A DNA stretch of 55,750 nt from Candidatus Micrarchaeota archaeon (GTDB taxonomy: Archaea > Micrarchaeota > Micrarchaeia > Micrarchaeales > CABMGC01), in NCBI GenBank assembly GCA_027315135.1, contig DAHUYR010000021.1:1-55750 (forward strand), in the 5' to 3' direction. Both the position numbers and the translations under genes were made by a program. Below, piece by piece: positions 1,435-54,990 of the stretch; the first letter of the stretch is position 1; each line of letters begins with the position of its first letter. Under the pieces are notes generated by a model, which did no database searches, was not told the origin of the DNA, and saw only the letters and a program-made list of their open reading frames with translations.

Positions 1435-1916
1435 TTCATCACCGAACTATCTTCTTCTTTTTTACTTTCTTCTTTGTTTATTATGGCGATGTCTGCAATG
1501 CTTACTTCTTGCGGCTTCTGGGAGTGCCTGTCGTCCCCACGCTGTGGCTCTCTTCTCCTCCTCTCGCTGCCGCTTATCCTTCTCATCTCGTTGTAATAAT
1601 CATCGAGCTTCTTGTTAGAATCCTTAAGCTGTACAACCATCGTCTCTATCTGTTTGTTCATTTCTTCTATTCTTTTGTCTATGAACTCTACTTTCTTCTT
1701 CAGCCTGTAGCTCTTCGTAGCCTCGCTGAGCTCCTTCTCAATCGCATTTCTCTTCCTGATAAGATCCCTTTCAGCATCGAGAGTGAATGCTTCTGTGGAT
1801 ATCCTGAAATCAATATCATTCTTTCTCTTTCTAAGGTACCTTATGTCCTTTGTCTTTTCATGGCTGAGTTGTGCAAGCTTAGACACTGCTGCTTTTTCAT
1901 CAAGTTTGTAAAGCAT
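1431..1916 (-). CDS. Coiled-coil protein of unknown function (K/E/R-rich), 5' end uncertain
   Basis: 161-aa ORF with heptad-like charged sequence. It overlaps the start of the downstream RNase gene by 4 nt. The frame stays open 249 nt upstream of the ATG (see findings). Confidence 0.55.
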   Translation of the reverse strand: MLYKLDEKAAVSKLAQLSHEKTKDIRYLRKRKNDIDFRISTEAFTLDAERDLIRKRNAIEKELSEATKSYRLKKKVEFIDKRIEEMNKQIETMVVQLKDSNKKLDDYYNEMRRISGSERRRREPQRGDDRHSQKPQEVSIADIAIINKEESKKEEDSSVMN

Positions 1917-2077
1917 CCTGCGCTTCGTCGCCCTTATGATATTGGCTATCGAAGCTCCCTTCTTCCTCTCAACTTCAATCTCATTCCTGAGTTCGTCTAA
2001 CCTGCTCTTCTTCTCATCTTTGTGAGGTGCCGGTGCTGCTTCTGCAGCAGCTTTATCGTTTCCGTTCTCTATTCCGC

Positions 2078-3253
2078 TCAGTCTATCGCCTGTTTTGACA
2101 AAAGTAGTTTGTAAACATCTATCAGTTTGTCCGTCATCTTCTCCGAAGAGAAACTGCGTCCTGTATCAATTGCATTTACAATATAAGGTTTAGTATCATT
2201 TAAAACCTTATCTATTTTCTGGGCGCAATGCCTGTAATCTCCTGCACGGAACTTTTCACCATTGAAACCGTTCCTTATCAGCTCCTTTGTCGAGAGATAA
2301 TCTGCTCCGACTACTGGTTTTCCGCAGGCCATCGCCTCTATGGATACTATGCCTTGAGTTTCGAATGTGGACGGCATGCATACCAGGTCCGAAGACGCAT
2401 ACACCTCGGGGAGGGTCCTTTGGTTTACGAACCCTATGAAGTGCACCTTGCTTGCTATGCCTAATTTATGCGCCAGTTCCTTGTAATGCGTTTCAGACGG
2501 GCCCTTGCCTGCAATCACCACCTTTACATGGTCATCCTTGGTCATGAGGAGCTTTGATGCCTTGAGCATCGTTTCTATCCGTTTTTCTGCGGATAGCCTG
2601 CCCACATATAGTATGACCTTGTCTCTTTCCTTTATTCCATACCTTTTCCTTACCCTGCTGCCACTTACTTTGTTGTTGAACTTGGATATGTCTATGCTGT
2701 TAGGCACAACTGAAACATCTCTTATGCCGCTCTTGTAAAGCATATTTTCCACAGTTACTGATGGCGCTATTACACCATCGCATCTCCTATAGAAGAAGCG
2801 TAGGTATTTCTTCATGTAACTGCTTGCAATCTTCTTCACATGCTTGCTCTTCGGATAATAATGCTCCACAATGTACCTGTTGTTCACAAACGTATGGAAT
2901 GATCCTACTACTGGCGTTTGGGACATTCTCCCAGCCATAAGTCCGGAAAATCCCATCGCAAACGGCGTCTGCGCATGTATAACGTCTACTCCAAGAGACC
3001 TGAGCTTTATGGCAGAATTGTACGGGAATATAGCAATACTATACTGCGGATATGGTTTGAAACTAAGCCCTGTATAAAGGAAGGTCTTCTTATCTGAATA
3101 CTCTTTCTTGTTCCTAGGGCTTGCGCTGGCAAACACATAAACATTATGCCCCCTTTTCTCAAGCTCCTTCCTGAAATTTATTATAGAAGTTACGACACCA
3201 TCAACATTGGGCAGATAAGTGTCGGTATAAAAAGCAATACTTAATTTTTCCAT
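2078..3253 (-). CDS. Glycosyltransferase, GT4 (group 1) family
   Basis: N-terminal FYTDTYLPNVDGVV and a C-terminal EX7E-type motif region (FETQGIVSIEAMACGKPVVGAD), typical of GT-B fold GT4 enzymes. Confidence 0.85.
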   Translation of the reverse strand: MEKLSIAFYTDTYLPNVDGVVTSIINFRKELEKRGHNVYVFASASPRNKKEYSDKKTFLYTGLSFKPYPQYSIAIFPYNSAIKLRSLGVDVIHAQTPFAMGFSGLMAGRMSQTPVVGSFHTFVNNRYIVEHYYPKSKHVKKIASSYMKKYLRFFYRRCDGVIAPSVTVENMLYKSGIRDVSVVPNSIDISKFNNKVSGSRVRKRYGIKERDKVILYVGRLSAEKRIETMLKASKLLMTKDDHVKVVIAGKGPSETHYKELAHKLGIASKVHFIGFVNQRTLPEVYASSDLVCMPSTFETQGIVSIEAMACGKPVVGADYLSTKELIRNGFNGEKFRAGDYRHCAQKIDKVLNDTKPYIVNAIDTGRSFSSEKMTDKLIDVYKLLLSKQAID

Positions 3254-3260
3254 GTATACA

Positions 3261-3656
3261 CTAAAGCTTTATGGCTTCTCCTCCTGCTGCCTTTATCTTC
3301 TCTTCTGCCTTCTTGGAAAATGCCTTTGCTGTTATCTTAACAGGTACGCTTATGCTTCCTCTGCTAAGTACCTTGTAATTACGAAGCATTACTTCATTGC
3401 CTTTCCTGAGTTCTTCAATATTCCTCGATATCTCCTCAAGGTTTATCTCCGAATAATTCTTCTTCCTCCAAGGAGCGAATCCAACCTTCCTAATAGAATC
3501 CTTTTCATATACTACTGTATGGGTCCACTTTCCTTTTGTTCCTCCCCTTCCTGTGCCTCCTCTGTCTCCAGAGCCTCTTGCGTTCTTTATGTTTCCTACG
3601 CCCCAGCTCCTGCTTCCGAGGAACTTCCTGCTCTTTTTCTTAATCCTTAATACCAT
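3261..3656 (-). CDS. rpl15: 50S ribosomal protein uL15
   Basis: Gly/Arg-rich N-terminal region GSRSWGVGNIKNARGSGDRGGTGRGGTKGKW. Its size and its position directly downstream of uL30 also fit. Confidence 0.9.
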   Translation of the reverse strand: MVLRIKKKSRKFLGSRSWGVGNIKNARGSGDRGGTGRGGTKGKWTHTVVYEKDSIRKVGFAPWRKKNYSEINLEEISRNIEELRKGNEVMLRNYKVLSRGSISVPVKITAKAFSKKAEEKIKAAGGEAIKL

Positions 3657-3665
3657 AAAAACACT

Positions 3666-4091
3666 TTATGCCATTCTCTTTATCAATGCATTTATTTCAG
3701 CGCCCCTGTATCCAAGGTCACCGCCAGCCTTATAGTTTTGCTTTATGCTGCGGTATCCCTTTCTAGGAGGGTGCATCCTTATTGGCATTGCAATTACCTC
3801 CTTCGGGCTCTTCTTTCCTGATGAAATTTTCTCAATATCTGCCTTCTCAACCTTCATATCCTTTCTCTTTGCAACAAGCTCCAACGTATCGTTGTCTATC
3901 TCTCCGTAGGTGACGAAGTCGCTGCATTTGTTTATCATGCCTATATTCGACCTGTTCCCATAAAGCAGGATCATGCTGTTTACCCTGTTGAGATTCATTC
4001 TCTTCATGGTCTCCTTTATCTCCTGCCTTACTCCTAAGGTTCCTCTTACTCTTACTATGGCAATTAACTTGTTCTCAAGATTTGTCTTCAT
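3666..4091 (-). CDS. rpl30: 50S ribosomal protein uL30
   Basis: IAIVRVRGTLGVRQEIKETMKRMNLNRVN matches the uL30 ferredoxin-like core. It has archaeal length (141 aa) and is adjacent to uL15. Confidence 0.9.
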   Translation of the reverse strand: MKTNLENKLIAIVRVRGTLGVRQEIKETMKRMNLNRVNSMILLYGNRSNIGMINKCSDFVTYGEIDNDTLELVAKRKDMKVEKADIEKISSGKKSPKEVIAMPIRMHPPRKGYRSIKQNYKAGGDLGYRGAEINALIKRMA

Positions 4092-4645
4092 AAATAGACC
4101 CGTATAAAGCCATCGCTGTGCTTTGAATAAAATTCTGTAAGTTTATGTATAACTCAAGGTTTTTATATCTTTACTAAAGCAAGCCATCTCTTACTATGCT
4201 ATGTCTTGCTTGCTATTCTCGCACATAATTATATGTTATGAAGAATCTCAGAAGCAAGCGCTGTCTAACTTTCAAATCAAGAAGCCAATTGAAATCCTTA
4301 AATAATTCAAATGTACAACTTTAGATTATTGGCCTCTCTGTTCCGATTTTAGGATGAGAAATAACTTACTTTCTGAAAATCCTTCAGTTATACTATATGC
4401 TTCTTAGTTCATATACTTTTCGGCAAATCTTTAAAAGGCGGCATCTGCATATTGGCATTTACAAGGCATGTACTGCAAGGAACTACTTCTTCCTGTCCTT
4501 CCCTTGCAGATCCTTGAATACGGCTGTGCCAAGTGTCACACCACCCAGAACAGCCCCGGAAGCGATATACACTATCTTTTCTTCAAAACTGACCCATGCA
4601 TGCCGAACATCATATTGCCTATTCCTGTACTACATATGAATACGT

Positions 4646-5638
4646 CTATTTATGCATAATCTTCAAAATAAGACTAGCTGCATCTCCAGTCCCGTTTTTG
4701 ATATTGATTTCTGTTTTGCTACTGCTTATACTCTTTATATAATCAATAATCCTATTTGCAGAATCTGCGCTGTTTATACTAAACGCTTTGCCTAGTCTCA
4801 TACGTTCTATTATCTTGGAGTTATTTTCCTTTTCAAGATCGCCATCTGACAGGATAATTATTGGTTTTCCAAGCATAACTGTTTCTTCAATAACGGCCAA
4901 TCCGCCATTCACAATTACTACACTAGAGTCTGCAAATGATAACATTGGTTCTTTAACAAATTCCCACATTTGTCTTTTCTGCCCTATCAGTCCTACCTCA
5001 TATCCTTGATTTGAAAGTTTTTTTGCTATCTTCTCCGACATTTTTATCAAGGAAGCATCAGAGCTTGCAGTCATGCATATAGTGATTTTCTTATGCACAT
5101 TTCTTTTTGTTACCTTACTATCAGGAAGTTGGCGTACCATTGGCCCAACGAAATGCACATTTCCTATTGACTTGTTCATTAAAATTCCATGCACTATGGT
5201 AAGGTCAGGCTGCCTGAGCATAGCCTTGCTGATATGTGCGTATCTTCTATAAACTCCGGAATCGCCTTCTATATAAGAAGGTGTACATATATGGACCAAT
5301 TTTACTTCAAGGTTCTTCAGCATGAAGAGCGAATCAATCTCACCGTCCACAACGACAACTTTTGGTGCCAACTTTTGCAACAATGGTATAACATCGTCAC
5401 ATAACTCAAACATGTCCTTCCAAGGCACCCTTGACTTTGTTTTTTCAGGTTTTTTTATTTCATATATGTTCTTAAGATTGAAATTGCGTAGGAAGTCAAG
5501 TCCATTTGCATAGCTGATATATGCACATTTTAAGCGATGCTTTGTCAGTTCCTCCCCCAAAGCGTAGCCAGGGCTCACATGACCTATGCCCGGCATGCCT
5601 CTCAATAAGAATGCTACATCTATTTTGTCTTCTTCCAT
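4646..5638 (-). CDS. GT-B glycosyltransferase, GT1/GT28 (MurG/UDP-glycosyltransferase-like)
   Basis: N-terminal GMPGIGHVSPGYALGEEL (a G-x-G-H loop as in MurG/MGT). The C-terminal VNGGLAVIEETVMLGKPIIILS...NSKIIERMRLGKAF resembles the nucleotide-sugar binding half. Confidence 0.6.
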   Translation of the reverse strand: MEEDKIDVAFLLRGMPGIGHVSPGYALGEELTKHRLKCAYISYANGLDFLRNFNLKNIYEIKKPEKTKSRVPWKDMFELCDDVIPLLQKLAPKVVVVDGEIDSLFMLKNLEVKLVHICTPSYIEGDSGVYRRYAHISKAMLRQPDLTIVHGILMNKSIGNVHFVGPMVRQLPDSKVTKRNVHKKITICMTASSDASLIKMSEKIAKKLSNQGYEVGLIGQKRQMWEFVKEPMLSFADSSVVIVNGGLAVIEETVMLGKPIIILSDGDLEKENNSKIIERMRLGKAFSINSADSANRIIDYIKSISSSKTEINIKNGTGDAASLILKIMHK

Positions 5639-7116
5639 ATCTGCAAGCCTCTGCTACCATTTTTATCAAGGACAAATCCATAGTCATTTAAACAAGTGCT
5701 AATGGCCTGTTCTGCACTGCTGTTTGTTGCCAAGTGCATTGGATGCAGTATATGCTCTTCCCTAAAAAATCTCGTGGTGAGAGCGATTGCACCTCCATTC
5801 TCTACCAAATTTGCAAGTTTAGAAAGCATATCGATTGGTCTAGGAACATGTTCAAGCACATCTGTGCATATCACAAAGTCAAAATCTCTTTTTGTATCGA
5901 TACTCTTACTAATCTCAACGTTAATTCCTTTCCTTGATGCGTACCATCTAACATAGTTAAGAAGTGAATCTGATATATCTACACATGTGGCTCTACAACC
6001 TTTTCCAGCAAGCGTAAAAACGCTATTTGCAAGGCCGCAGCCATAGTCAAGGACAGTTTCATAATTCTCGACAAGTGCGTAATTGTTGATTTCATTATCC
6101 TGCTTGCTCCAATCATCAGAGAGATGGGCAATGGCCAGGTCAAATATATAATTTCGGCTGTTTTCATAGAATTCTACGATTTCCTTTTCCGTTACTGGAA
6201 ATTTCTTAAGCCACTCGTTTCTTACCAGGATAGGGCCTATCATAATATTCTCTATGGTGTCGTTTAATTCCCATTTCAGATATAAGCTTAGTTCTTTAAC
6301 AAGGGCATATTTTTCTGGATTGGAGAGGATACCTGATTTAAATACACCCTTACATCGTTCGCAAAAGATCTCGTTTACCACTACATTTACATTGCAGAGT
6401 TTGCATTTCATCTCAATATTCTCATTCAAGAAGTTCAATATATTGTTTATACTGTCAAGATTGCCTATTCTAAATGTGTAGCCTTTATCAGGATTCACAC
6501 CTAGCCTATCAATAAAACAAAACGGAATGCCGAACTGCATGCACGCACCATCAGCTTCCAATTCATTGCCTATCATTACGGTCTCTTTGGGTTCAATATG
6601 TGTTTTTTCAATCACAAGCCTGAACATCCTTCCAGATTCCTTGTCGGCTTGCATCTCGCCTGTTATAAAAATATCCTTGAAATAAGAATCTATGCCAAGA
6701 CGCTTAAGCATTGCTCTTACAATCCTGCCTTCTCCCCTACTGACCACATACATATCATATTTATTTGCCATATCTGATAGTATTGCATCTGCACTGTCAA
6801 GCAATTTGATATTATCAAGCCTATGTCGCTCCATCTTATCTTTAAACAGTTTTTCCTGTTCTTCAGATAGGCTTATTCCAAGATATTTCCCCAGCCTTCT
6901 CATGACAAAATCCATGCCACCGTGCATCTTCTGACTCTTATTATTCACTTGATCATAATCATTTACGGCTCTGCTGAATGCTTCAGCGAACTCTTCGGCG
7001 CCTATATTAAATCCAAAATCAATCATTGCTTTATAAGCTGCACGATCCACAGTACTCTTCCAACTCTCGTTATCAATCAGCGTTCCACCAATGTCAAAGA
7101 GTATTGTTTTTAGCAT
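5620..7116 (-). CDS. Fusion protein: HAD-superfamily hydrolase + CxxC...CxxC zinc ribbon + class I SAM-dependent methyltransferase
   Basis: HAD motif I LFDIGGTLID and motif IV-like GNELEADG. Central CKLCNVNVVVNEIFCERCKG. C-terminal VLDYGCGLANSVFTLAGKG...CVDIS...FDFVICTDVLEHV is the SAM-binding fold. Confidence 0.75.
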   Translation of the reverse strand: MLKTILFDIGGTLIDNESWKSTVDRAAYKAMIDFGFNIGAEEFAEAFSRAVNDYDQVNNKSQKMHGGMDFVMRRLGKYLGISLSEEQEKLFKDKMERHRLDNIKLLDSADAILSDMANKYDMYVVSRGEGRIVRAMLKRLGIDSYFKDIFITGEMQADKESGRMFRLVIEKTHIEPKETVMIGNELEADGACMQFGIPFCFIDRLGVNPDKGYTFRIGNLDSINNILNFLNENIEMKCKLCNVNVVVNEIFCERCKGVFKSGILSNPEKYALVKELSLYLKWELNDTIENIMIGPILVRNEWLKKFPVTEKEIVEFYENSRNYIFDLAIAHLSDDWSKQDNEINNYALVENYETVLDYGCGLANSVFTLAGKGCRATCVDISDSLLNYVRWYASRKGINVEISKSIDTKRDFDFVICTDVLEHVPRPIDMLSKLANLVENGGAIALTTRFFREEHILHPMHLATNSSAEQAISTCLNDYGFVLDKNGSRGLQIWKKTK

Positions 7117-8070
7117 TCAATCCCTCAAAATGCCCTTGAAAAGTTTTAATGTGATACTAGGGTCTGTAGAATAATGAAACTCATGGCCTATTGAAGGCAG
7201 TTGCTTCAAGCCTTCTAGCTTGCTTTGTAACATATCATCTCTTTCTTTATCTGTGAATACCTGCATGAACCAATCTCTGTGCAGCGGTTTGAAAGAATTC
7301 TGCAAAATTCCTGCAATTTCATATCTCTCTTCCAAGTTAAAAACCGGATGCACTACTATGCTTATCTTGTTAGACATATCTCTGACCGAAAGATAAGCTG
7401 ACATCTCCACATATCTGTCAATATCTAGTTTTAGACCTACATATCTTCCTGCGTTTTTCCTTATCTGCGCAAGAGTGCTTATGGAATAGCTCCTGCCATT
7501 CTCTATCATGCTTCTGTCCTCAGATATTAACTGTATCGGCATCTTTGCATTTATCAGTTGCAACAACAAGGTTGTTTTGCCCTTCCCCGAATCGCCATTA
7601 ACCAGTATGCCTTCAGAACCATGGTTTATTGTTATTGCATGAATTACCGGTCTCGTAGTGGCAAGCTGTATTAATTCCAAAACCCCAACAGTGAAAATCC
7701 GGTAATCCACATCCATGAGAAGCTTGACATCTAAAATTTCATCTTTCCTATCTACTAAGATGTATCCATCACGCTTTGGCACATAGTACACTACCTTATC
7801 CTTGCCAATTTGCTTTACCTCCCAATCTACTGGTTTATCTATACCTCTATACTCAGTTTTAGATGCTGAAGTAAACGCGCCCCTGCCAATACTACTTTCT
7901 TTAGAAACAATACCTATGTTTATCTTGGCAGGCAAATCAAATAACCTTCCAGATCTTCTGTCCATAGCTTGCAAGAAGCTGTCAATTCTTTCATGCAATT
8001 CATTACTTCCTCCATAATGGGTAATTGTTGCCTCGCCAATTTTGGAAGTGATACTGGTGCTTTTAAACAT
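7117..8070 (-). CDS. HPr-kinase-related P-loop protein (HprK C-terminal-domain-like), N-terminal domain unknown
   Basis: HGSEGILVNGDSGKGKTTLLLQLINAKMPIQLISEDRS parallels the HprK/HprK-related kinase signature (G-x-L-x-x-G-x-S-G-x-GKS/T ... acidic pair). It abuts the upstream gene with no gap. Confidence 0.5.
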   Translation of the reverse strand: MFKSTSITSKIGEATITHYGGSNELHERIDSFLQAMDRRSGRLFDLPAKINIGIVSKESSIGRGAFTSASKTEYRGIDKPVDWEVKQIGKDKVVYYVPKRDGYILVDRKDEILDVKLLMDVDYRIFTVGVLELIQLATTRPVIHAITINHGSEGILVNGDSGKGKTTLLLQLINAKMPIQLISEDRSMIENGRSYSISTLAQIRKNAGRYVGLKLDIDRYVEMSAYLSVRDMSNKISIVVHPVFNLEERYEIAGILQNSFKPLHRDWFMQVFTDKERDDMLQSKLEGLKQLPSIGHEFHYSTDPSITLKLFKGILRD

Positions 8071-8133
8071 TTTACATCACACTGCCTATTCCTGCATCTG
8101 CCATGCTTATGAATGCACCAGACGCTGCAAATT

Positions 8134-8285
8134 TGCCTGTCTCTGAAAGCAAATGCTTATTTGCACTATATGCATGCTTAAATTTTTGTACAAATTGCAT
8201 TTTATCATAATCAGCCTAGATTTTATGGTTCTTAAAACTATAACTAACATTCGACGATAGTCTACTAACAAGAACTTACTCCTGC
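8134..8285. repeat. Dispersed repeat family A, copy 1 (~152 bp)
   Basis: By eye it aligns at roughly 85% identity with 17060..17213. Shared blocks are gcctgtctctgaaagcaaatgcttatt, tttttgtacaaattgcattttatca, ttttatggttcttaaaa and agtctactaacaagaacttactcctgc. Confidence 0.85.
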
Positions 8286-8536
8286 CTTTGCAATTCCTTC
8301 CGCTCCTTGAAAATGATTATCGCTGCAGTTGCTCCTGCGATGACTATCCCTGTGCCTATTCCTTCGAAAAGTTTTTCAGGAGAGAGGCTATCAATGCCTG
8401 ATTTTCCTGTTCCGAAAGCCGTTACCACTCCTCCTGCAACAGCACCATAAGCTGTAAAAATAAATCCGTCTAACATTATGCGTCTTCTGTTACGGCTATC
8501 CTGTTCCACTTCAGGTTTTAATCGCATGTTAAACAA
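8276..8536 (-). CDS. Small membrane protein with two glycine-zipper-like hydrophobic segments
   Basis: 86-aa ORF with a basic N-terminus (RNRRR). Two G/A-rich helices (FTAYGAVAGGVVTAFGTG; GIGTGIVIAGATAAIIIF) are followed by a charged tail. Confidence 0.5.
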   Translation of the reverse strand: MFNMRLKPEVEQDSRNRRRIMLDGFIFTAYGAVAGGVVTAFGTGKSGIDSLSPEKLFEGIGTGIVIAGATAAIIIFKERKELQRQE

Positions 8537-8567
8537 CGCAACACGTCGTATACTAAATTATTAAACA

Positions 8568-8646
8568 TTGTGTCAAATCACGTTTAAATCCCGAAAACAT
8601 TTAAACATTACAAAAACAAATTGCGGTTATGGTTCTTAATTACATA
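8568..8646. repeat. Dispersed repeat family B, copy 1 (~79 bp) carrying a TATA-like box and a truncated gene start
   Basis: By eye it aligns at roughly 85% identity with 18734..18812. It contains tttaaaca (8600-8607) about 29 nt before ATG 8629. That ATG opens only a 10-codon ORF (MVLNYIRKQF*). Confidence 0.85.
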
Positions 8647-8834
8647 AGGAAACAATTCTAAAAGCAGGCAACAAACTACCAATTTACACGTTCTTCGTAT
8701 TTGTGGAATTTTAGCTACACATGACGAGGAACAGGAAATAACCAAAACGCACCAGAACTACTGTTCAGGTGTGGGTATTTTAAATATACTGTACGCTAAA
8801 ACGTTATAAGTTATCTAATAGTTGGTGTATACGC

Positions 8835-9332
8835 ATGAAAGGAGCATTCTTAGACAAGAAGTCAAAGTTGGCATCAGGTCTTTCAATATTAGCTATTTTT
8901 GGGTTGGTAGCAGGAATAGTATTGGCTACTGGCACTACCGATCTGGTTTCCGCTTCAGTAACAATAAACAGTTATTGTTCATTCACAGTAAGCAATACTG
9001 CAATTGATTTTGGCAGCCTTTTCCCAGGAAATACTATACCGACTGACAATGTCATTACAGTAAGTGACACAGGAAACATTGGATCTAACATACTTACTTC
9101 AGGAAGCAACTGGGCGTTTGCATCAAACACGTTCGGCGTTACTAATACTGTATGGAGTCCAACTTCCGGAACCACCTATGCTTCAGCAACTCCTCTTACA
9201 GGAACTACTACGGATACTAAAATAGTAGTAACCACAACAACTTCAAATGATATATACTATGGTTTAGGAATCCCAGCAGGCGAAGCTCCTGGAACATACT
9301 CTCAAACTATTAACGTAATCTCGAGTTGTTGA
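8835..9332 (+). CDS. Secreted ~120-aa beta-rich domain protein, paralogue of the C-terminal domain of ORF 10258..14082 (candidate filament/pilin-like subunit)
   Basis: Sec-type signal peptide with a likely AxA-type site (LVSA/SV). The mature part aligns with the last ~118 aa of the 1274-aa protein, from CSFT...FG... through WAF..NTFGVTNTVWS to GIPAGEAPGTYSQTINxISSC*. GGTG sits 8 nt before the ATG. Confidence 0.8.
   Translation: MKGAFLDKKSKLASGLSILAIFGLVAGIVLATGTTDLVSASVTINSYCSFTVSNTAIDFGSLFPGNTIPTDNVITVSDTGNIGSNILTSGSNWAFASNTFGVTNTVWSPTSGTTYASATPLTGTTTDTKIVVTTTTSNDIYYGLGIPAGEAPGTYSQTINVISSC
9267..9322. repeat. Inverted repeat arm 1 (3' end of 165-aa gene)
   Basis: ggaatcccagcaggcgaagctcctggaacatactctcaaactat.aac.taatctc recurs as its reverse complement at 10268..10323, with 2 mismatches in 56 nt. 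Confidence 0.9.
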
Positions 9333-9364
9333 CTGATTAAAGCTTACAATACTAACGTGATAAC

Positions 9365-9994
9365 GTGGGCAATAAACTGCTTGTTTCGGTACTTCTACTA
9401 TGTACGTTATCTGTGATGGTGACAGCAGCTAACCAAACAGGAAAACTTGCCACCAATCCAACCTCTAACATTACTTCAAATAAGACAAGCAACCAAACTG
9501 TTGCTCTAGGATCCGGAGGTTTTGGAGAATTTGAAGGTAATCTTGTTTACGTTCTATCATCGGGCTCTTCACATACTGAGTACTGGACACTTGTCAACAA
9601 ATTTGCATATCCTGTAAGTTTCTACATAGTGCCTCCAAATTTCAGTGGTTCACAAGCCCCTCCAACCCTTGTATTCTCAGAGCTTAACGGAACTATACCT
9701 GCGCAGTCTAATCTGACCATAAGCGTTATTGCATATTCTCCATCATGGACAGCATATCTTTTTGACACGAACAGCAGCCACTGGAGCGGCTACGCTACTG
9801 CATATGCGTCAGGCACAGCTACAAATGCTGGCGGAGCGAGCATAGTACTGGGCACTGCAAAACTCATAATGGTGACGTTTAATCCTTCAAACATGCTCCC
9901 AACAATAATAACTGCAGTAGTGATCATAGTAGTAATTGTGGCAGTTTCGTACTATTTGTACAGAAGAAGAAAGAAAAGCAGCAGACGCAGGTAA
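9365..9994 (+). CDS. Signal-peptide protein with Ig-like/beta-sandwich-looking ectodomain, C-terminal TM anchor and poly-basic tail
   Basis: GTG start. N-terminal hydrophobic signal (LLVSVLLLCTLSVMVTA), multiple N-x-S/T sequons, and C-terminal TIITAVVIIVVIVAVSYYLYRRRKKSSRRR. Confidence 0.7.
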   Translation: MGNKLLVSVLLLCTLSVMVTAANQTGKLATNPTSNITSNKTSNQTVALGSGGFGEFEGNLVYVLSSGSSHTEYWTLVNKFAYPVSFYIVPPNFSGSQAPPTLVFSELNGTIPAQSNLTISVIAYSPSWTAYLFDTNSSHWSGYATAYASGTATNAGGASIVLGTAKLIMVTFNPSNMLPTIITAVVIIVVIVAVSYYLYRRRKKSSRRR

Positions 9995-10257
9995 CTAGGA
10001 AGTTGCCAATGCTTCTAAAGTAAGCTTCCAAAGCACTCCTACCTTTCATATATTCCTTCAAATTTTTCTAATTAACTTTATACTTTGCACCTTTTGCCTC
10101 TGTTGTTATGCTCTTAATTACGCTGCATAAGTGACATCTACTCAGAAAAAGAATTTATGGTCTGAGTTCATTCCACACTTGAAAGAGGTGCGATATTGCA
10201 AGCTCTGAAAACATTAAACATGTGCCTGTAAGCATGCAAGATATACGAACATATTCG

Positions 10258-13200
10258 TCAGCATGAAGAGATTATGTTTATAGTTTGAGAGTATGTTCCA
10301 GGAGCTTCGCCTGCTGGGATTCCTATTCCAAAATAAATATCTTTACTGTTCGATGCGCCTAAAGTAACTTCGGTATCGTATTCTGTAGATGTTAATGCAT
10401 TCGCAGTAATATATGGTACGTTTATGGACCATGACCAAACCGTATTTGTGACTCCGAAAGTATTTGTTCCAAATGCCCACGAATTTCCGCTTAGGAGCAC
10501 ATTTGAAGGAGTATTTCCAGTATTTGTTATGAGTATTGCATTTTGTGTTGCAATAACGTTTCCAGGATTTATAAGCCCAAAGTTTATTACAGAGTTACTT
10601 GTTGTAAAAGAACAGGTATTAGAACCAGACACTATTGTAAGTGTTCCGGATTTTATTGAATTTGTTGTTTCTGGGCTGTACGCTGAGTCTGTTACTATTA
10701 CATTTGTTTGCACAGTATTACCCAAATCAGCACTTGGTATTGTCCATGCAAAGCTGTTTGAGGTTCCCGATATTCCTGTAAAGAGCATGTTTGCCACTAG
10801 GTTTCCTGTTACTGTGTTTACTATTAGGTAGTTGGCAGTGTATGTAGGCGTTCCTCCTGTCCATGAAGCTGTAAAGGTTATTGTGTTGCCTGATCCAAGA
10901 CTGGCCGGCAATACTGGAGATGAGATTAGGATTGGAACTGACAAAGCCGGATTTACCGTTACTTCACTGTTTATTGAATTTGTAGTTTGGACATTAGTTT
11001 GGACAATTCCTAAGTAGTAAGTAGAGCATAGTTTAGTTAGAGGATTAATAAGAGTGCATTCTAATACGTATGCATATGAACCATCAGGGGAGATTCCAAC
11101 GTATTGAGGGTCTTTAACTGCCGAGGAAGAATAAGCCTGAGTTATGGTATTAGTCGCTGTATCAATTACATCTATTAGATATGTATTAGAAGATACTGAT
11201 GTTACGTAGGCATAGGTTCCTGAAGGAGCTATGCTCACGCCTGTTGGGTCAAAAGAAACTGTCGTTATTGAACCTGTTACTGCATTTGTGGCTGTATTGA
11301 TTATTGCTACATTAAAATTACCATTATTTGATGCATATGCAAAGGTGCCGGAAGGGGAGAATGATACTGAAGTTGGACTACTGAAGCCGCTGGATATTGA
11401 AGCTGTCACTGAGTTGGTTGCTGTGTCGATAATAGATACGGTGCCGCTATTGTAATTTGCCACGTATGCATATGAGCCGTCAGGGGAGAATGCGACACTG
11501 TATGGAAGATTCAAACCTGTAGTTATTGCTCCAGTTACTGCATTTGTAGCAGTATTTATTATTACTATATTTGTCGGAGCACCTGTGTTAACTACATATG
11601 CATATGTGCCTGAAGGAGCTATACTGACTCCCTCTGGGCTGTTAAAGCCCGCAGTTATTGCGCCTGTTACTGCATTGGTTGCTGTGTTGAGTATTACTAC
11701 ATTGTTGCCAAGAGGATCTGTTACATATGCAAAGGTGCCTGAAGGGGAGAAGGCTAATTGCCGAACATCTTCTGTATCGGACAATGTAGAACCTATGGAA
11801 GGCGAATATATGTTGTTCTCAGTTACAAATATGCAGTAATACGTGTTTGAGGCTGGGCTTACAGAAGAAAATGTTGCAGAAGTTGATGACAGTCCGATTT
11901 CCTGTTCAACTAAAGTGGACTGCTGGTTGCAGGTTGAGGTTGATGAAGAATATAAAGATGCTCCATATGTTGAGGTTCCTCCTAACCATGTGCTGCTGAA
12001 AGTTACAGACTGACCTGAATCTATTGCTGGGTCGGAAGGGCTGATTGTTGGAGTGGTTAAGCCCTGACTTATTCCGAACGTAGATGAATAAATCGAATTG
12101 AATGTTGTTGGGCTTGAATCAGTCACTATCACATTAAACTGTTCAGGCGAATTTGCCACGTCTGCGCTAGTTGTTGTATACGTGAAAGTATTGCTGGTTG
12201 CCGATACTCCTGTAAACAGCATATTTGCCGTTACTGCATCGGTTATGCTGTTTGATACTATCCAATTATAGGTATACGGACCTGTCCCTGTACTTACGGT
12301 AGCAGTACATGAGACTGATTGGCCTGATTGCATAACAGTTGTAGATGGGCAGGTTGATAAGCTTACAGAAGGTATGGGAGGAAGAACGAGTATTGGAGGA
12401 CTTGTGCCATAATTAAACACATATATTTGACCATTCCCTCCATTTCCTCCCACTCCTGCAGAGCCGCTACTACCGCCTGTACCGCCTGAAACAGTTATTC
12501 CTGATGTAGACGGAGCAGTACCTACTCCATTATATGCAAGAAGTACAAATCCACCGCCTGCTCCTCCACCACCTGATGACGAATGCTTTCCACCGCCTCT
12601 TCCACCTGAACCACCGGCAGTACCTGCCGTAGCTCCACCTGTTCCTCCTGTTGTTGCTGCAGTAGCGGTAGTGCCAGCGCCACCACTACCTAAAGCCTGT
12701 ATGGTTCCTGTAGTGATTGAATTAGCCTGTATATATATGCCGTACGCCCCGTCTCCTCCAAGATCTCCTGAACCATCACCACCGCCTCCTCCACCTGCAC
12801 CTGAATCATAGTTTACAAATGGCCCGCCGTACCATGTTTGGATTAGTGAACCTGTAATAGAAGGTAATGTTGGAGTAGAACCTGGAGAACCTGGGACACC
12901 GCCTCCTCCACCTCCTCCACCTCCGCCTCCTGAGCCTGCGTAAGAACTTGTATAGGAACCTCCAGCTCCTCCACTACCTGCTCCTCCATTCGGGCTATGT
13001 CCGGTAGATATTACGCCATTGTTTATAACACTATTACTGCAGAGTATGTCATATCCATCTGTAGTTAGCGTTATCCCTGAGTTAATAGTAAGTGAACCGC
13101 AAACAAGGTCGCTTCCCAGAATAGTACTACTAGATATGACAAGGTTTGTATTTGCAGTTGTGTAGTATACTGTAGGATCGACAGCTGAATAGTTACTGTT

Positions 13201-14082
13201 CCCTTTTGTCTCAAATACTATCTCACTTGATTCGGTGCTTGGTATATTTGAAAAAGATACCAATTTGTTTATTGAAATAGCAGATATGTTTCCACCATCC
13301 TTCAATACACCTCCTACATAAATTTTGTACGAATAGTTAATCCCTGTATTACCGGATATTGAACTTGAAAGGCTAGCGTTAAGATTATAGCTATTAGTAA
13401 GATATACTGCTGATCCAAAGGTTTTATACGGGCTGACAAGCACGTTTTCAACAGGCTCTGACGAATTGATTATAACTCTGCCTAATTTAACCTCAAGATT
13501 CGGAACTGCTTTTGTGATGGAGATATTATATAAGCGAAGTATGCTTCCATTCTGTATATATATTGCATAATGGCTGGACGTACCTGCACCGACATCTCTG
13601 CCTTTATTAGATAGATATCCGTAAGGTATTGTTAGGTTGTAGTCCTCAATCATTACGTTTTGCGCTGCAGGTGCAATACTGCATTTTGAAGAGTTGATTA
13701 GATTCTGAAGCTGCGGCGTGCTTATTGGAACAGTTGAGTTAAGTTCAGAATATAAGTTTCCCGAAAAATTGTTTTCAATATAAACCATGTTATTTTTATA
13801 GTATCTCGATATAGTTTCGTTTAATCCGTAACATAATCCGGATGTTTGGGTAAGTGCTGTCCCATTCGTCAGATTTGTTGCAACTGTGGAGTTAGGTGCT
13901 GAGTTAGTTGAATTTCTGACAGTAATGGTTGAATTATAAGACTGATTTAAGAGTGTATTCGAGGAGCTATTAACAGATGCATATGTATTGTTTGTATAAT
14001 AAGCGTATACAATGAATCCTGGTAGGATAACTATAAGTAAAGATAATATAGCATACTTGAACAGGTTTTTCATTTTATGCAT
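10258..14082 (-). CDS. Giant secreted multidomain surface protein: N-terminal sequon-rich domain, Gly-rich segment, Ig/PKD-like modules, YVTN-type beta-propeller, C-terminal domain shared with ORF 8835..9332
   Basis: It has an N-terminal signal/anchor. The Gly-rich block includes 11 consecutive Gly. Two homologous modules share ANMLFTG(V/I)S..SN.F...SAD..N...NVIVTDS. Six repeats of the type FSPSGTFAYVTD / IAPSGTYAYVVN / FSPDGSYAYVAN, each followed by I(I/L)(D/N)TATN.VT, are YVTN beta-propeller repeats. Confidence 0.85.
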   Translation of the reverse strand: MHKMKNLFKYAILSLLIVILPGFIVYAYYTNNTYASVNSSSNTLLNQSYNSTITVRNSTNSAPNSTVATNLTNGTALTQTSGLCYGLNETISRYYKNNMVYIENNFSGNLYSELNSTVPISTPQLQNLINSSKCSIAPAAQNVMIEDYNLTIPYGYLSNKGRDVGAGTSSHYAIYIQNGSILRLYNISITKAVPNLEVKLGRVIINSSEPVENVLVSPYKTFGSAVYLTNSYNLNASLSSSISGNTGINYSYKIYVGGVLKDGGNISAISINKLVSFSNIPSTESSEIVFETKGNSNYSAVDPTVYYTTANTNLVISSSTILGSDLVCGSLTINSGITLTTDGYDILCSNSVINNGVISTGHSPNGGAGSGGAGGSYTSSYAGSGGGGGGGGGGGVPGSPGSTPTLPSITGSLIQTWYGGPFVNYDSGAGGGGGGDGSGDLGGDGAYGIYIQANSITTGTIQALGSGGAGTTATAATTGGTGGATAGTAGGSGGRGGGKHSSSGGGGAGGGFVLLAYNGVGTAPSTSGITVSGGTGGSSGSAGVGGNGGNGQIYVFNYGTSPPILVLPPIPSVSLSTCPSTTVMQSGQSVSCTATVSTGTGPYTYNWIVSNSITDAVTANMLFTGVSATSNTFTYTTTSADVANSPEQFNVIVTDSSPTTFNSIYSSTFGISQGLTTPTISPSDPAIDSGQSVTFSSTWLGGTSTYGASLYSSSTSTCNQQSTLVEQEIGLSSTSATFSSVSPASNTYYCIFVTENNIYSPSIGSTLSDTEDVRQLAFSPSGTFAYVTDPLGNNVVILNTATNAVTGAITAGFNSPEGVSIAPSGTYAYVVNTGAPTNIVIINTATNAVTGAITTGLNLPYSVAFSPDGSYAYVANYNSGTVSIIDTATNSVTASISSGFSSPTSVSFSPSGTFAYASNNGNFNVAIINTATNAVTGSITTVSFDPTGVSIAPSGTYAYVTSVSSNTYLIDVIDTATNTITQAYSSSAVKDPQYVGISPDGSYAYVLECTLINPLTKLCSTYYLGIVQTNVQTTNSINSEVTVNPALSVPILISSPVLPASLGSGNTITFTASWTGGTPTYTANYLIVNTVTGNLVANMLFTGISGTSNSFAWTIPSADLGNTVQTNVIVTDSAYSPETTNSIKSGTLTIVSGSNTCSFTTSNSVINFGLINPGNVIATQNAILITNTGNTPSNVLLSGNSWAFGTNTFGVTNTVWSWSINVPYITANALTSTEYDTEVTLGASNSKDIYFGIGIPAGEAPGTYSQTINIISSC
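10268..10323. repeat. Inverted repeat arm 2 (3' end of 1274-aa gene)
   Basis: Reverse complement of 9267..9322 (see that entry). Confidence 0.9.
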
Positions 14083-14096
14083 GTAAACTACTTTAT

Positions 14097-14891
14097 TCAG
14101 CCAAAGAGTAATTTGAGCAAAGCCCTAAACAGACTGCGCTTCGGCATCCTTCCTTCAGATGCAGGATTCTCTGTCTTGTACACGTATTTTTCGCTTAGCG
14201 TGTTTGCTGCTTTGGAAAACGGATCTTTAGAATTCAGCATCACTGCAGGTATGTGCTTGGCTATGCTTATCGGAACAAGTTCGGATTCAGGGAACATGCC
14301 GTCTGGTTTCTTGCCATATATGCCACTTATGTCTCGCATCGGTATCTCATAATTCTTATGTTTAACCCTATTGATAATCAGTGAATGCTTAAGGTTGGCC
14401 TTATCATATCTGGCAGCAAGCTTCAGCACGCTTTGAAGAGCAGGGAGATCTGGAGTAGTTAATATAACAGCTTCATCATAGAAACCAGTTAATTCACTGT
14501 CGAATTGCCCTGGGGGAGTGTCTGCGATTACGAAATCATAGCCTGCTTTTATGATGTCGTTCTTGAATAATTGGTAATGTTCTGCATTGGTTAGCAGGCT
14601 CTTCGCGTTAAGCTCACATGGTACAACGTGCATTCCGCTTGGTTCATGGACTACTGTTGCATTTTGTAATTTGGTCCTTCTATAAATGACTGATTGCATG
14701 CCTATATTGACATCTTCAAGTCCGAGATGAAACCCCACGCTAGGATTTGAAAAATCAGTATCGTAAAGTAGTACTTTATAGCCCATAATGGAAAGCAGAG
14801 CAGATAGATTAACGGCAACAGTTGTCTTACCAACGCCACCTTTTTGTGAAGATATCCTGATCAGGTATACACTATCTGACATCACTATCAA
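14097..14891 (-). CDS. MinD/ParA-family P-loop ATPase
   Basis: Deviant Walker A SSQKGGVGKTTVAVNLS, then DTDFSNPS (switch I region) and a Walker B-like DFVIADTPPG. Its 264-aa size is typical of archaeal MinD-like proteins. Confidence 0.85.
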   Translation of the reverse strand: MIVMSDSVYLIRISSQKGGVGKTTVAVNLSALLSIMGYKVLLYDTDFSNPSVGFHLGLEDVNIGMQSVIYRRTKLQNATVVHEPSGMHVVPCELNAKSLLTNAEHYQLFKNDIIKAGYDFVIADTPPGQFDSELTGFYDEAVILTTPDLPALQSVLKLAARYDKANLKHSLIINRVKHKNYEIPMRDISGIYGKKPDGMFPESELVPISIAKHIPAVMLNSKDPFSKAANTLSEKYVYKTENPASEGRMPKRSLFRALLKLLFG

Positions 14892-16923
14892 TCTCGCTCC
14901 GCTTAATTCTATCGCGTAATCTTATTATTCTTTGTCTGTCCTCCGGATCTATCTGATTTACATGCCTAGCCAGTATGGACCGTAAGATTAGGTAAAAAAG
15001 CGTTATTATGATTAGAATTGATAGTGTAAAAAGTACATACTGTCTGTTTGCAAGCATAAACGATATTAGAGGATATGCTGACACCTGCTGTGCAGTATAT
15101 GTGGCTTGGCTCGGTAGTACGATTAATGGCAGTGTTTCATTGTATGATGCACCTGTTGTAGAAACTGCAAGCTGAGCTATAGTTGTACCGGTTGCATTGT
15201 AAGCGTGTATGTTGAAACTATGGCTTACCAATTCATTCGGTGTGGCATTTACATAAGCGATAGGGTTTAATATTTGCAGGTTCTGCCCTCCAGAAAGCAT
15301 GAACTTTATCTGCGCAGCAACGGTTCCGGTATATAACGCAAACACATCTACCGTACCGTTCGCATTCTGATACAAGCTCGGTGCATCTATCCTAACTATT
15401 TTCATTATGCTAGAATTTGATGCTGTTGAAGGCTCATTGAAAACAGTCTGTACATTATCTAATGCCAGAGGGCTCTGTAGTTTGTTTATTGAGTAATAAG
15501 CGTAGAGTGTTTGATTTGGAGGTAGGACCGGAACATTCCATTTTATATTATAACTAAGCTTTGTCATCGATACGTTATTTGGCATGCCGTACGCGCGGAC
15601 ATGCGAGAGGTTTCCTACGAGTAGCGGAATCTGTGCGTATAACGTTGCATTCTTTATTGTCGTATTTTTAAGAGAACTTATAGATATCGTTGCCTGCGCT
15701 GTAGAAAACGAATCGAATGATTGTACCTGCGTGGAGATGGAGACAGGCAGGTTATTAAATTGTATACTCTTGGGGTAGGATACGAATTTGGAATAAGTGG
15801 TTATTTTTACAATCTTTCCAGAAGCAGATATGCCTGTTATGTTCAATGGGATTATGTATGTTCCGCTGGGAATGCCTGAAGAGTTAAATACAAGCTGTAC
15901 GTACTGGGTGCTGTTTTTATATAATGTAATAGTTTTTGAAGAAAAGAGTAACGTATTGGAAAATTCCTGAGGCACGCTCAGATATGCTGTTAGATTATCC
16001 TGCCCAGTAAGCCCTAATATTGATGATACCTGCTGCCCAGAGGTTGTTGTGACATATATCGGCATGGAAGTTATAGATATGCCTGGTATCTGTTTTGTGC
16101 TCTGTAATACTGTTGCGTTTTGGAGATATCCTGCTGAAGCAGTAGGTACTGGCCCTACGGAAGGATGGTTTTGTACTGCGTTTATCACATAAGATACTGA
16201 ATTTGAGACATAATTTTCTGGTACGGTGTTAGAGACATATGAAAGATTTGCTGTTACAGTATATTTGCCAGGAAGTGCAGTAGCATTATTCACTATAACT
16301 ATGGTGTTCTCGCTCTCTGATGGAGATAGTGGGTTTAGTAATTGTGACAGATGATAAACAAGCGTTTTTGTTCCGGAAGACTTGGTTATTGAAAGGTTTA
16401 GAGAGACTGAATTAATAGCATAGTAACCAGAATCTTTTAAGGTAAGATAAACATAGAGAGGGGTATTTAGGTTTGCAGAACTTAAGGAGAGATTAGTTAT
16501 TATAAGACGTGCCGGTGCGAGGAGTTGAAATTCTGAAGTATTCTGATTCTGGAACCCATTGCTGTGCAGGTAAATTTTCGCAGTATAATTGCCTATTGGA
16601 ATGGAGTTCGCCACTATTGCCAGGTTTATAGTCCGAATTATTTGATTCAGGTTGCTAATATTCTGCGAGTAATTTAACACAGTGCTGCCATTTTCAGCAA
16701 GAGAAAAGTAGCCGTTCAAATCAGGTATCCCACATGTTGAAGTGGTCTGTGCTGTATAGTTTATATGTATATTTCCAATGTCAGGATATACTGGCAAGGT
16801 GGATAAATGCAGTGAGTAAGGACAGTTTATTGTGATATTGGCGTATATTAAATTAGAAGACGCATGCAACATCGTAGTACCGAGCAACAGCGCAAGTAAC
16901 ATATATGCTTTTTGAAGACTCAT
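14872..16923 (-). CDS. Sequon-rich secreted protein with C-terminal TM anchor and charged ~40-aa cytoplasmic tail
   Basis: Signal peptide (MLLALLLGTTMLHA), many N-x-S/T sites, a TM (VLFTLSILIIITLFYLIL) and the tail RHVNQIDPEDRQRIIRLRDRIKRSEIDSDVR. Its 3' end overlaps the MinD/ParA start by 20 nt. Confidence 0.75.
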   Translation of the reverse strand: MSLQKAYMLLALLLGTTMLHASSNLIYANITINCPYSLHLSTLPVYPDIGNIHINYTAQTTSTCGIPDLNGYFSLAENGSTVLNYSQNISNLNQIIRTINLAIVANSIPIGNYTAKIYLHSNGFQNQNTSEFQLLAPARLIITNLSLSSANLNTPLYVYLTLKDSGYYAINSVSLNLSITKSSGTKTLVYHLSQLLNPLSPSESENTIVIVNNATALPGKYTVTANLSYVSNTVPENYVSNSVSYVINAVQNHPSVGPVPTASAGYLQNATVLQSTKQIPGISITSMPIYVTTTSGQQVSSILGLTGQDNLTAYLSVPQEFSNTLLFSSKTITLYKNSTQYVQLVFNSSGIPSGTYIIPLNITGISASGKIVKITTYSKFVSYPKSIQFNNLPVSISTQVQSFDSFSTAQATISISSLKNTTIKNATLYAQIPLLVGNLSHVRAYGMPNNVSMTKLSYNIKWNVPVLPPNQTLYAYYSINKLQSPLALDNVQTVFNEPSTASNSSIMKIVRIDAPSLYQNANGTVDVFALYTGTVAAQIKFMLSGGQNLQILNPIAYVNATPNELVSHSFNIHAYNATGTTIAQLAVSTTGASYNETLPLIVLPSQATYTAQQVSAYPLISFMLANRQYVLFTLSILIIITLFYLILRSILARHVNQIDPEDRQRIIRLRDRIKRSEIDSDVR

Positions 16924-54800: not shown

Positions 54801-54990
54801 TAGGACTTTGTGCTGTCCCGGTACCATTCTGTGAAGATCCCTGATCTGCCTGCCCTTTATTCTGTGATGTACTCTGCCCAGTATTCTGCGATGTATTCTG
54901 TCCAGTACTCTGCCCTGTACTCGGTGGAGTATTCTGTTGAGGAGTTGAATCGCTTGAATCATCATAGCTGATAGTGTCTTCGTCAACCAT
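51862..54990 (-). CDS. Type-II-anchored surface protein: disordered Q/S/T/G/N-rich N-terminal tail, one TM, about four right-handed parallel beta-helix (PbH1/NosD-like) modules
   Basis: The N-terminus is low complexity (GQSTGQNTSQNTGQSTSQNKGQ...EQEQEPEAEA). The TM is RIVIAAIIAIAIVAAAFFLF. Repeated N-x-(S/T)-rich ~22-aa beta-helix turns follow. Modules open with C..(I/L)...G.Y and close with Cys-rich motifs. Confidence 0.8.
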   Translation of the reverse strand: MVDEDTISYDDSSDSTPQQNTPPSTGQSTGQNTSQNTGQSTSQNKGQADQGSSQNGTGTAQSPSPAGQGAGSAQPSGEQEQEPEAEASQDNVIEETPSPDESNIIKPTIGEAVSESAENAYTNAIGLGERGAQKAANMRIVIAAIIAIAIVAAAFFLFNNSGNHSTTTYTTTIKQNYQLSSCGVISTPGSYTVQSGIFTHISSGACIVIKSNNVRLTGSKVQLSGNGPFIDAPPYTYGILVENASNVSIQGFNVTRFSYGIYFENSSQVAIRNSSVGNSTMSDISISNSPYTAVSNDIVYGTSNPVGAILIGTGSNGTSITNSIIEFNVYYGTATYSSNTLFYGDTFLGNQVDLYCGAGITAFSSSGAYSNSRCNSNRQCNFATCTKSNYDFSPAAYNLSSQVSTCGALNAPGTYELESNLNLAYYVNVSRNKAACITVLSQNVRLNCNGKSIINAYYGIYGNKIFNFSLENCNFANDTYGNYFNGSAELKFSNVSYSKGTYGIYLSNDSFVNITDSHYSNNIYGAYLGNSSATINRIDAGNNTYGLATNGSTTGVLHNGTILRNKVDLYCSSNSYNSSGFIASDVSCGSSDCNWATGLCTTRVLPPIAAYPINSCTTLSVAGNYSLNTNLIPTGTCIKFAASNINLNCNNHLLNYDGSSRASSAFYASSVSNITLANCNVENFPYGFSAYNSSRITLDNSEFLHASTAVNLYNISLSVFENVKAYNYSVYGLQAYRLKQSSVVNNLAFSLLSNATGFYLYGNSTRNVFVNNTASNNKNIGFVFDSSNDNLVANNTANSNANDYACNPASSGIYAELNGVNHGLTKTGCVWLVELPASALRPSCTAINTVNGYSIAHDMLYTYGTTCFSVYNSNKTTLTDGSYINCEGHTIYAENGGIFANIYNTSRIEIENCFLKNFTQAIVSSGTYTNVLNTTIANSVNGIVLNGAGSSVIKDVNIFNATDTAIILNKSAGDTISSVKISNSTTGINFGATSSSLAGSSVSGTTYGIYCPTVSPSGNSDLGGNSCSSTNCPWLTSTACKA

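Follow-up and report, generated by a model that had tools for sequence, protein, structure and literature searches.

The stretch of DNA analysed here, hereafter the window, covers 55,750 nt of contig DAHUYR010000021.1 (assembly GCA_027315135.1, Candidatus Micrarchaeota archaeon). It contains a small gene for a protein of 165 aa (open reading frame [ORF] 8835..9332, plus strand) and a large gene for a protein of 1274 aa (ORF 10258..14082, minus strand), with an ORF of 209 aa (9365..9994, plus strand) lying between them. The large gene thus runs opposite to the small one, and the two are convergent. The original prediction for this locus had proposed that the 165-aa protein is a free-standing copy of the C-terminal domain of the 1274-aa protein, and formal pairwise alignment bore this out. 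By BLASTP, residues 30–165 of the small protein and 1143–1274 of the large one were identical at 76 of 136 positions (56%; 72% positives; E = 1e-43), and the gap-free core of the alignment held 70 identical residues in 119. That description of the two copies was correct, although it had left unstated that the large ORF is on the minus strand. Both copies also have, as described, a Cys near the start of the domain and another as the very last residue (C48 and C165 in the small protein, C1157 and C1274 in the large one). The features of the locus are collected in Table 1.

Table 1. Coordinates, within the window, of the features of the small gene, the large gene and their accessory genes.
Feature	Position	Strand	Remarks
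Possible archaeal TATA box, TTTAAATA	8779..8786	+	About 50 nt upstream of the ATG of the small gene; tentative, read from the sequence
Predicted Sec-type signal peptide, small subunit residues 1–31 (...GIVLA|TG)	8835..8927	+	Cleavage inferred
Putative N-terminal donor strand, D36–S46 (V38-x-A40-x-V42-x-I44-xxx-C48)	8940..8972	+	Family motif, in the register of CsuA/B
Pilin-like beta-sandwich core, C48–C165, bounded by Cys	8976..9329	+	Fold inferred from the P0022 model and its PDB matches
46-nt tract encoding G145–T158 (GIPAGEAPGTYSQT)	9265..9310	+	Loop and start of the last strand; identical to 10280..10325 (-)
Candidate anchor or chaperone-like partner, p209	9365..9994	+	Signal peptide, one immunoglobulin (Ig)-like ectodomain, C-terminal transmembrane (TM) helix, basic tail
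C-terminal pilin-like domain of the 1274-aa protein, residues 1149–1274 (C1157...C1274)	10261..10638	-	By BLASTP; without the donor-strand motif
Partner of the 46-nt identical tract	10280..10325	-	Inverted repeat within the domain of the large gene
Variable "adhesin" part of the 1274-aa protein	10639..14082	-	Signal peptide, NxS/T-rich, Gly-rich, YVTN propeller
MinD/ParA-type ATPase	14097..14891	-	Deviant Walker A KGGVGKTT; C-terminal amphipathic helix SLFRALLKLLFG
Candidate assembly or anchoring platform, p683	14872..16923	-	Signal peptide, large NxS/T-rich, beta-rich ectodomain, C-terminal TM helix, charged cytoplasmic tail

The window carries the archaeal housekeeping genes for GatD/GatE, aIF5B, SMC, IleRS and PheRS, and metagenomes from acid mine drainage contain its sequence. 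Among genomes, the small gene has its closest relatives in three metagenome-assembled ones, named Candidatus Micrarchaeota or Micrarchaeaceae; two further relatives bear the same names, and the relatives named by organism belong to the Micrarchaeota (DPANN). The present NCBI name for this phylum is Microcaldota, in the kingdom Nanobdellati (DPANN).

The start codon of the small gene is preceded, at 7 nt, by GGTG. The predicted signal peptide of its product has a basic n-region, a hydrophobic stretch of about 20 residues and small residues at -3 and -1, with equivalent A-x-A-like cleavage sites in the relatives; no twin-arginine motif was found in it. A type IV pilin N terminus (KG|AF) was considered and ruled out, as charged residues follow it and the motif is not found in the relatives.

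The domain shared by the two proteins defines an unannotated family. A word-indexed search returned 18 and then 41 relatives, with no Pfam annotation among them and with "hypothetical protein" as the only name given to any. When a profile of the mature domain was run against 1.84 billion cluster representatives, 1319 of these matched at E ≤ 1e-3 and 94 at E ≤ 1e-30. Among 186 family proteins, 92 were small (a signal peptide and one domain), 32 were tandem proteins with two domains (approximately 320 aa), and 59 were large, ranging from 450 to 3421 aa. In every large protein (59 of 59) the domain ended at the last residue, and ahead of it were found modules as different as InlB B-repeats, LamG, beta-propellers, DUF2341 and Ig domains. 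The Cys at the extreme C terminus, as seen in both copies of the window, was the final residue of 180 of the 186 proteins. The match to the profile began at a median position of 2 in the small proteins, as compared with 9 in the large ones.

The most telling result is an asymmetry in what precedes the domain. In the small and tandem proteins it follows a motif, [VI]x[AG]x[VL]x[VI]xxxC, which we evaluated at positions -10, -8, -6 and -4, counted back from the first Cys, in 95 small proteins, 34 first and 30 second domains of tandem proteins, and 60 large proteins. Across the 159 small and tandem domains, the four positions were 67–100% conserved: the share of V, I, L, M or F was 83–84% at -10, 67–84% at -6 and 85–100% at -4, and the commonest residue at -8 was A (in the small proteins, A along with G). 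The motif was absent from the 60 large proteins, that of the window among them, with no position above 50% and no pattern. Thus, the small protein of the window has V38, A40, V42 and I44 ahead of C48, while at the same places ahead of C1157 its large counterpart shows T, T, V and G and matches the motif at one of the four. Judged from sequence, this is the asymmetry expected between polymerising subunits, which carry a strand to donate, and a tip adhesin that only accepts one. The donor strand of the bacterial pilin CsuA/B (AVTGQVDVKLNIST), which was defined experimentally, also lies directly ahead of its Cys and has hydrophobic residues at the same -4, -6, -8 and -10, and the family motif would presumably act in the same manner. 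In the self-complemented construct 6fm5, the CsuA/B donor strand was relocated behind the last strand of the domain, and the natural tandem proteins have the same geometry, with a last strand followed by a short linker, the strand motif and the Cys of the next domain.

The tandem proteins also provided a structural model. The mature part of one of them, P0022, was modelled with AlphaFold from an alignment of 29 sequences, with a pLDDT of 92.1 and a pTM of 0.81. In the first domain of the model, the first strand (28–34) is 7 residues long and the last one (134–146) 13 residues, and the linker between the domains (156–164) forms a beta-strand of 9 residues; the N-terminal motif of the first domain itself (8–16) is unpaired. 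The second domain lacks the equivalent of this first strand, and only 6 residues make up its last one. The strand ahead of the second domain therefore appears, in the model, to complete the first domain and to leave the groove of the second one open. Such a tandem, ending on one side in a free strand and on the other in an open groove, would be a chain-forming unit. In a Foldseek comparison of the model with the PDB, the first matches were 3f85, 3f83 and 3f84, which are engineered, donor-strand-linked fusions of CfaB and CfaE (E = 1.5e-6 to 1e-5, TMq of at most 0.51), followed by CsuE (6fjy_B), LpfD (5afo), the self-complemented CsuA/B (6fm5, TMt 0.51), FimA and PapG.

A link to bacterial pilins was also seen in the sequences of the family. 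The Pfam family SCPU (PF05229) was matched by 4 of 35 members in one scan and by 4 of 59 in another: P0030 scored 23.6 bits, above the cut-off of 22.4, while P0033, colinear with positions 3–137 of the 138 in the profile, and P0038, also colinear, were below it. DUF4402, Mfa_like_1 and FimA-like_C appeared as weak matches among the members. A family profile (A3) was further compared, by global hhalign, with 14 aligned bacterial pilins that are annotated as SCPU and come from chaperone-usher operons. The two were colinear (P = 2.1e-4, Prob 21%, as against P = 0.2–0.3 for the reversed control), and the Prob rose to 44% with the signal peptides included. Cys was aligned with Cys, and I-[YF]-G...G-T-Y-T-Q-T-I with I-Y-G...G-T-Y-T-D-T-V. 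The first Cys is conserved, while the second is the C-terminal residue instead of being at the strand-B position (...VTC...) of SCPU. These similarities are suggestive, yet short of proving homology. No paper that connects SCPU domains to archaea turned up in a full-text literature search.

To see what accompanies the domain, 11 independent loci were compared: the window, L001, L005–L010 and L019–L021. Relatives do keep both copies, a matter that the original prediction had left for checking, as both are present in 10 of the 11 loci. In nine loci a large protein ending in the domain is encoded directly upstream of the small gene (three of these genes run off the end of their contig, and frameshifts break up another), and in the window the large gene is near the small one but inverted. 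L001 alone differs: its large protein, encoded at 6061..9834 upstream of the small gene, has no pilin-like domain and ends in a TM helix with a basic tail; this adhesin appears to be anchored directly in the membrane. The complete set is found in one direction in L019, in the order p683, MinD, an adhesin of 2320 aa, the small subunit and p209. In L010 (3038..9853), the adhesin gene is spread over six or more ORFs, with a pilin-like domain shortened by a frameshift, which points to either a pseudogene or an error of assembly. Three consecutive small paralogues, resembling the major and minor subunits of bacterial pili, were observed in L009 (10001..11610) and in L020 (1904..3536), and L009 also encodes two large proteins with the domain.

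The two copies in the window are related at the DNA level by a tract of 46 identical nucleotides, for which shuffled controls gave no comparable match. From residue 144 on, codons for the same residue were identical in 16 of 20 cases, versus 16 of 50 before it (Fisher p = 4e-4), and outside the tract most synonymous sites differ. A change of Q to E within the tract was present only in the two copies of this genome. Large and small genes shared identical tracts in three of five loci, namely the window (46 nt), L006 (32 nt, in the same place) and L009 (48 nt, elsewhere in the domain), and none in L007 and L008. From its sequence, the 46-nt tract looks like gene conversion. Sequence is thus passed between the tip domain and the subunit, by which groove and strand would stay matched to each other. 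The same tracts, being a sign of exchange between the copies, could be taken to mean that the domain was simply duplicated between neighbours and kept similar by recombination alone, without any functional link. We find this very improbable, given that the pairing of large and small proteins is maintained in 10 of 11 loci at 40–70% protein identity and that the architecture recurs over hundreds of clusters.

The tandem proteins also bear on the two cysteines. Their first domain has both Cys in 21 cases, neither in 8 and only one in 5 (some of which are N-terminally truncated fragments), while the second domain retains both. Since the Cys are gained or lost as a pair within one domain, the bond would be intradomain, running from the start of the first strand to the C terminus. 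The clamp disulfide of the original prediction is thus favoured by this both-or-neither pattern.

From this in silico evidence, we consider it reasonably probable that the genes between 8835 and 16923 encode a donor-strand-linked surface fibre or stalk, with the 1274-aa protein as its tip adhesin. In the mechanism that we propose, the 165-aa protein would be the polymerising subunit, and cleavage of its signal peptide would free the N-terminal strand V38-x-A40-x-V42-x-I44. The Ig-like pilin domain that follows, its ends stapled by a C48–C165 disulfide, would present a groove between its first and last strands, and into this groove the strand of the next subunit would enter. The 1274-aa protein, with a groove-bearing C-terminal domain and no donor strand, could only accept a strand, and so would sit at the distal end as the tip adhesin, its propeller and flanking modules (Ig-like by eye) facing outward, probably to a host cell or a surface. 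At the proximal end, p209 may hold or cap the fibre, and p683, along with the MinD-like ATPase, may make up the site of assembly or determine its position. The strand insertion itself, and the polarity and length of the polymer, are what we infer from these data. The FimH-type logic of the original prediction, in which an adhesin is plugged by a C-terminal pilin domain into a fibre of its small paralogue, is favoured by the fold, the SCPU matches, the asymmetry of the motif, the C-terminal position of the domain in 59 of 59 large proteins and the conservation of both copies in 10 of 11 loci.

Several results weigh against this explanation. When the small protein of the window was modelled alone, from an alignment of 19 sequences, the pLDDT was 54 and the model was set aside, and in P0022 the insertion of the strand was read from the DSSP pattern only, not from the coordinates. 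The homology to SCPU is weak, with hhalign probabilities of 21–44% at best; the A3 profile did not match the single CsuA/B sequence, a Pfam scan of the two domain copies of the window gave no matches, and searches of PDB sequences with the family profiles A1 and A4 returned only chance matches (nsp10, LCI peptide). No usher (PF00577) was matched in the Pfam scans of the cluster proteins, and hhalign of p209, as a candidate Csu-type chaperone, against six such chaperones was not significant (Prob 7%, E = 0.005). In the lineage of L001–L004 the large protein is TM-anchored and lacks the domain. Three metatranscriptomes from a study containing the sequence gave no coverage. Finally, the N-terminal beta-sandwich of GH123 scored about as well as the pilins in Foldseek.

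Because this beta-sandwich and the carbohydrate-binding modules of sialidases score alike, the fold alone is not unique to pilins. It would also suit a C-terminal module for surface attachment or glycan binding (for example, to the surface layer [S-layer] or to a host glycan), which would park the large proteins with no exchange of strands, the small proteins being free lectins or competitors for the same site. In keeping with a sorting or anchoring domain, it always stands at the extreme C terminus of very different large proteins, and not only Foldseek but also Pfam returned beta-sandwiches of the GH123 N-terminal and NPCBM-associated types. Such a module would, however, leave unexplained the restriction of the strand motif to small and tandem proteins, the asymmetric strands of the tandem model, the SCPU matches and the ranking of donor-strand-linked fusions as the first structural hits, and we regard it as decidedly unlikely. 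Nor was the domain found as a common module of unrelated proteins without a small paralogue, because the small paralogue adjoins the large gene in every examined locus having a large one.

A shorter assembly is also conceivable. Here a single copy of the small protein would serve as adaptor or cap, perhaps with an uncleaved N-terminal helix that still keeps it in the membrane, and its strand would plug the adhesin domain and so tether the adhesin, with no polymer formed. The hydrophobic stretch of about 20 residues is long for a signal peptide, the donor strand begins only about 5 residues past it, and a single small gene per locus is common. Conversely, A-x-A-type cleavage sites are conserved throughout the family, the natural tandems, with a free strand and an apparently open groove, are chain-forming units, and the three small paralogues of L009 and L020 are like major and minor pilus subunits. 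We consider this arrangement unlikely, if less so than an attachment module.

The accessory genes of the proposed fibre recur with its subunits. In 10 of the 11 loci, the last small gene is followed directly by a homologue of p209. The Ig domain of p209 gave weak matches to ASH, CFAP65 and fn3_5, and one relative has a precomputed PF21310 annotation. Unlike a PapD-like chaperone, with its two Ig domains, p209 has a single one and is anchored in the membrane. A role for p209 as a subunit-like anchor was rejected as far as sequence is concerned, for it shows no relation to the pilin profile (Prob 0.4%). Homologues of p683, on which Pfam gave only faint matches of the Ig or CARDB type, are present in at least eight loci (the window, L007, L008, L009, L010, L019, L021 and, weakly, L001). 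In four of the loci (the window, L001, L009 and L019) a homologue of p683 is adjoined by the MinD-like ATPase. In the window, this ATPase ends in an amphipathic helix (SLFRALLKLLFG) that resembles the membrane-targeting sequence of MinD, and the first 20 nt of its gene are also the last 20 of the p683 gene (14872..14891), which suggests that the two genes are translationally coupled. TadZ, FlhG and BcsQ are MinD-type analogues that position an apparatus, and by analogy with them the MinD-like ATPase may do the same here.

Among known systems, the close parallels to the proposed fibre include the bacterial Csu pili (SCPU-domain pilins CsuA/B, CsuA and CsuB, tip CsuE, chaperone CsuC and usher CsuD). 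In common with the cluster, these have a small, Sec-secreted, Ig-like pilin with an N-terminal strand directly before a Cys, the C-terminal motif G-T-Y-T-[QD]-T-[IV] of Csu/SCPU pilins, and a tip protein with a C-terminal pilin domain. Unlike Csu, the cluster has no usher and no significant PapD-type chaperone, nor would an archaeon be expected to have an outer membrane. The second Cys is found at the very C terminus and not in strand B as in Csu, tip proteins of the family can be as long as 3421 aa, p209, p683 and the MinD-like ATPase serve as accessory genes, and the sequence homology is only borderline. In the tip adhesins FimH, PapG and CfaE, the N-terminal part is variable and does the binding, while the pilin domain at the C terminus takes up a strand of the next subunit and donates none. 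The cluster shares this two-part tip adhesin with type 1, P and CFA/I pili, and CfaB-CfaB and CfaE-CfaB fusions are its best structural matches, but there is no sequence similarity, the disulfide is different, natural tandem pilins occur here, and the organism is an archaeon with a single membrane and an S-layer.

Fibres formed by donor strands are not new in archaea, since examples are already known or proposed. The bundling pili of Pyrobaculum and the cannulae of Pyrodictium are archaeal filaments held by donor-strand complementation. The threads of Sulfolobus acidocaldarius (Saci_0406) are donor-strand-complemented as well (PMC9715654). All three form without a chaperone-usher machine from Sec-secreted, glycosylated subunits; none of them was among the 50 PDB matches listed by Foldseek. 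They differ from the present cluster in that no giant tip adhesin has been described for them, in their gene neighbourhoods (Saci_0405, Saci_0407, Saci_0408) and in lineage, which here is DPANN. For the haloarchaeal Tat-fimbriae or tafi (TafA/TafE/TafC/TafF) and their Sec-dependent DUF1102 relatives, a fibre formed by donor-strand exchange was proposed, its parts being a tip protein of two domains, a major subunit and TafF, which resembles a subunit and is anchored in the membrane at its C terminus (PMC11821415). By analogy, p209 could be the counterpart of TafF. The tip of tafi, however, is modelled as donating its N-terminal strand, and because the large protein here has no donor strand, the polarity would be the opposite. 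Pfam scans of 94 members (35 and 59, in overlapping sets) gave no TasA/DUF1102 signal, and no SipW-like peptidase was found among the cluster genes scanned. What is new in the present case is an unannotated family of subunits whose closest resemblance is to bacterial chaperone-usher pilins (SCPU/Csu and CFA/I), together with the FimH-like polarity with an acceptor-only giant tip, the natural tandem pilins, the set of accessory genes and the DPANN lineage.

DPANN archaea such as the Micrarchaeota live attached to other archaea, and few of the molecules through which they do so are known. The cluster provides candidates for such molecules, with its proposed fibre subunit, its modular giant adhesin and the three accessory genes linked to these, as well as a simple rule by which a protein with the strand motif would be a polymerising subunit and one without it a tip adhesin. 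In this phylum, one cultivated member has been seen to bear thin, unassigned filaments (PMC11329633). If the link with SCPU is real, the chaperone-usher pilin fold and the logic of its tip adhesin extend to archaea without an outer membrane, which would show that such a fibre can be built without an usher. A bolder version, which we hold to be doubtful though somewhat more probable than either the short tether or the attachment module, is that the cluster is related to the archaic (Csu/SCPU) chaperone-usher pilus of bacteria and works, in DPANN, without an outer membrane, with p209 as both chaperone and anchor, a membrane platform of about 700 aa positioned by the MinD-like ATPase, and interchangeable giant tip adhesins (up to 3421 aa) by which the symbiont grips its host. 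Were that so, pilins of the chaperone-usher type would predate the split of the two domains of life or would have crossed between them.

The variable part of the 1274-aa protein begins with a predicted signal peptide (residues 1–27), followed by an NxS/T-rich region, a Gly-rich one at about 363–560 and a YVTN beta-propeller at about 766–1010 (nt 11053..11787), which matched the TIGR02276 YVTN repeats (E = 2.5e-27); the stretches flanking the propeller look Ig-like by eye only. We also considered whether an S-layer protein could be involved (Micrarchaeota SLP, PF05123; bioRxiv 10.1101/2021.04.28.441871), but no S-layer family was matched among the cluster proteins. In one DNA run from mine drainage (X3), the word depth of contigs over the propeller part (10800..12300 of the window) rose to about 1100, compared with about 8 elsewhere, with many joints that skip ahead or go back, at 90–95% likeness. 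Tandem Repeats Finder detected no tandem DNA repeat in the large gene. The depth pattern suggests that many related propeller-blade sequences, or variants in the number of repeats, are present in the community.

Two other regions of the window touch on surface proteins. A second large protein (1042 aa, 51862..54990, minus strand) has a NosD/right-handed beta-helix region and lacks the pilin-like domain. Adjoining the cluster of NxS/T-rich surface proteins is a block of glycosylation-type genes (118..8070, minus strand), coding for a GT4 glycosyltransferase, a fusion of HAD and methyltransferase domains and a weakly GT28/GT1-like protein, which may be the glycosylation machinery for the cluster.

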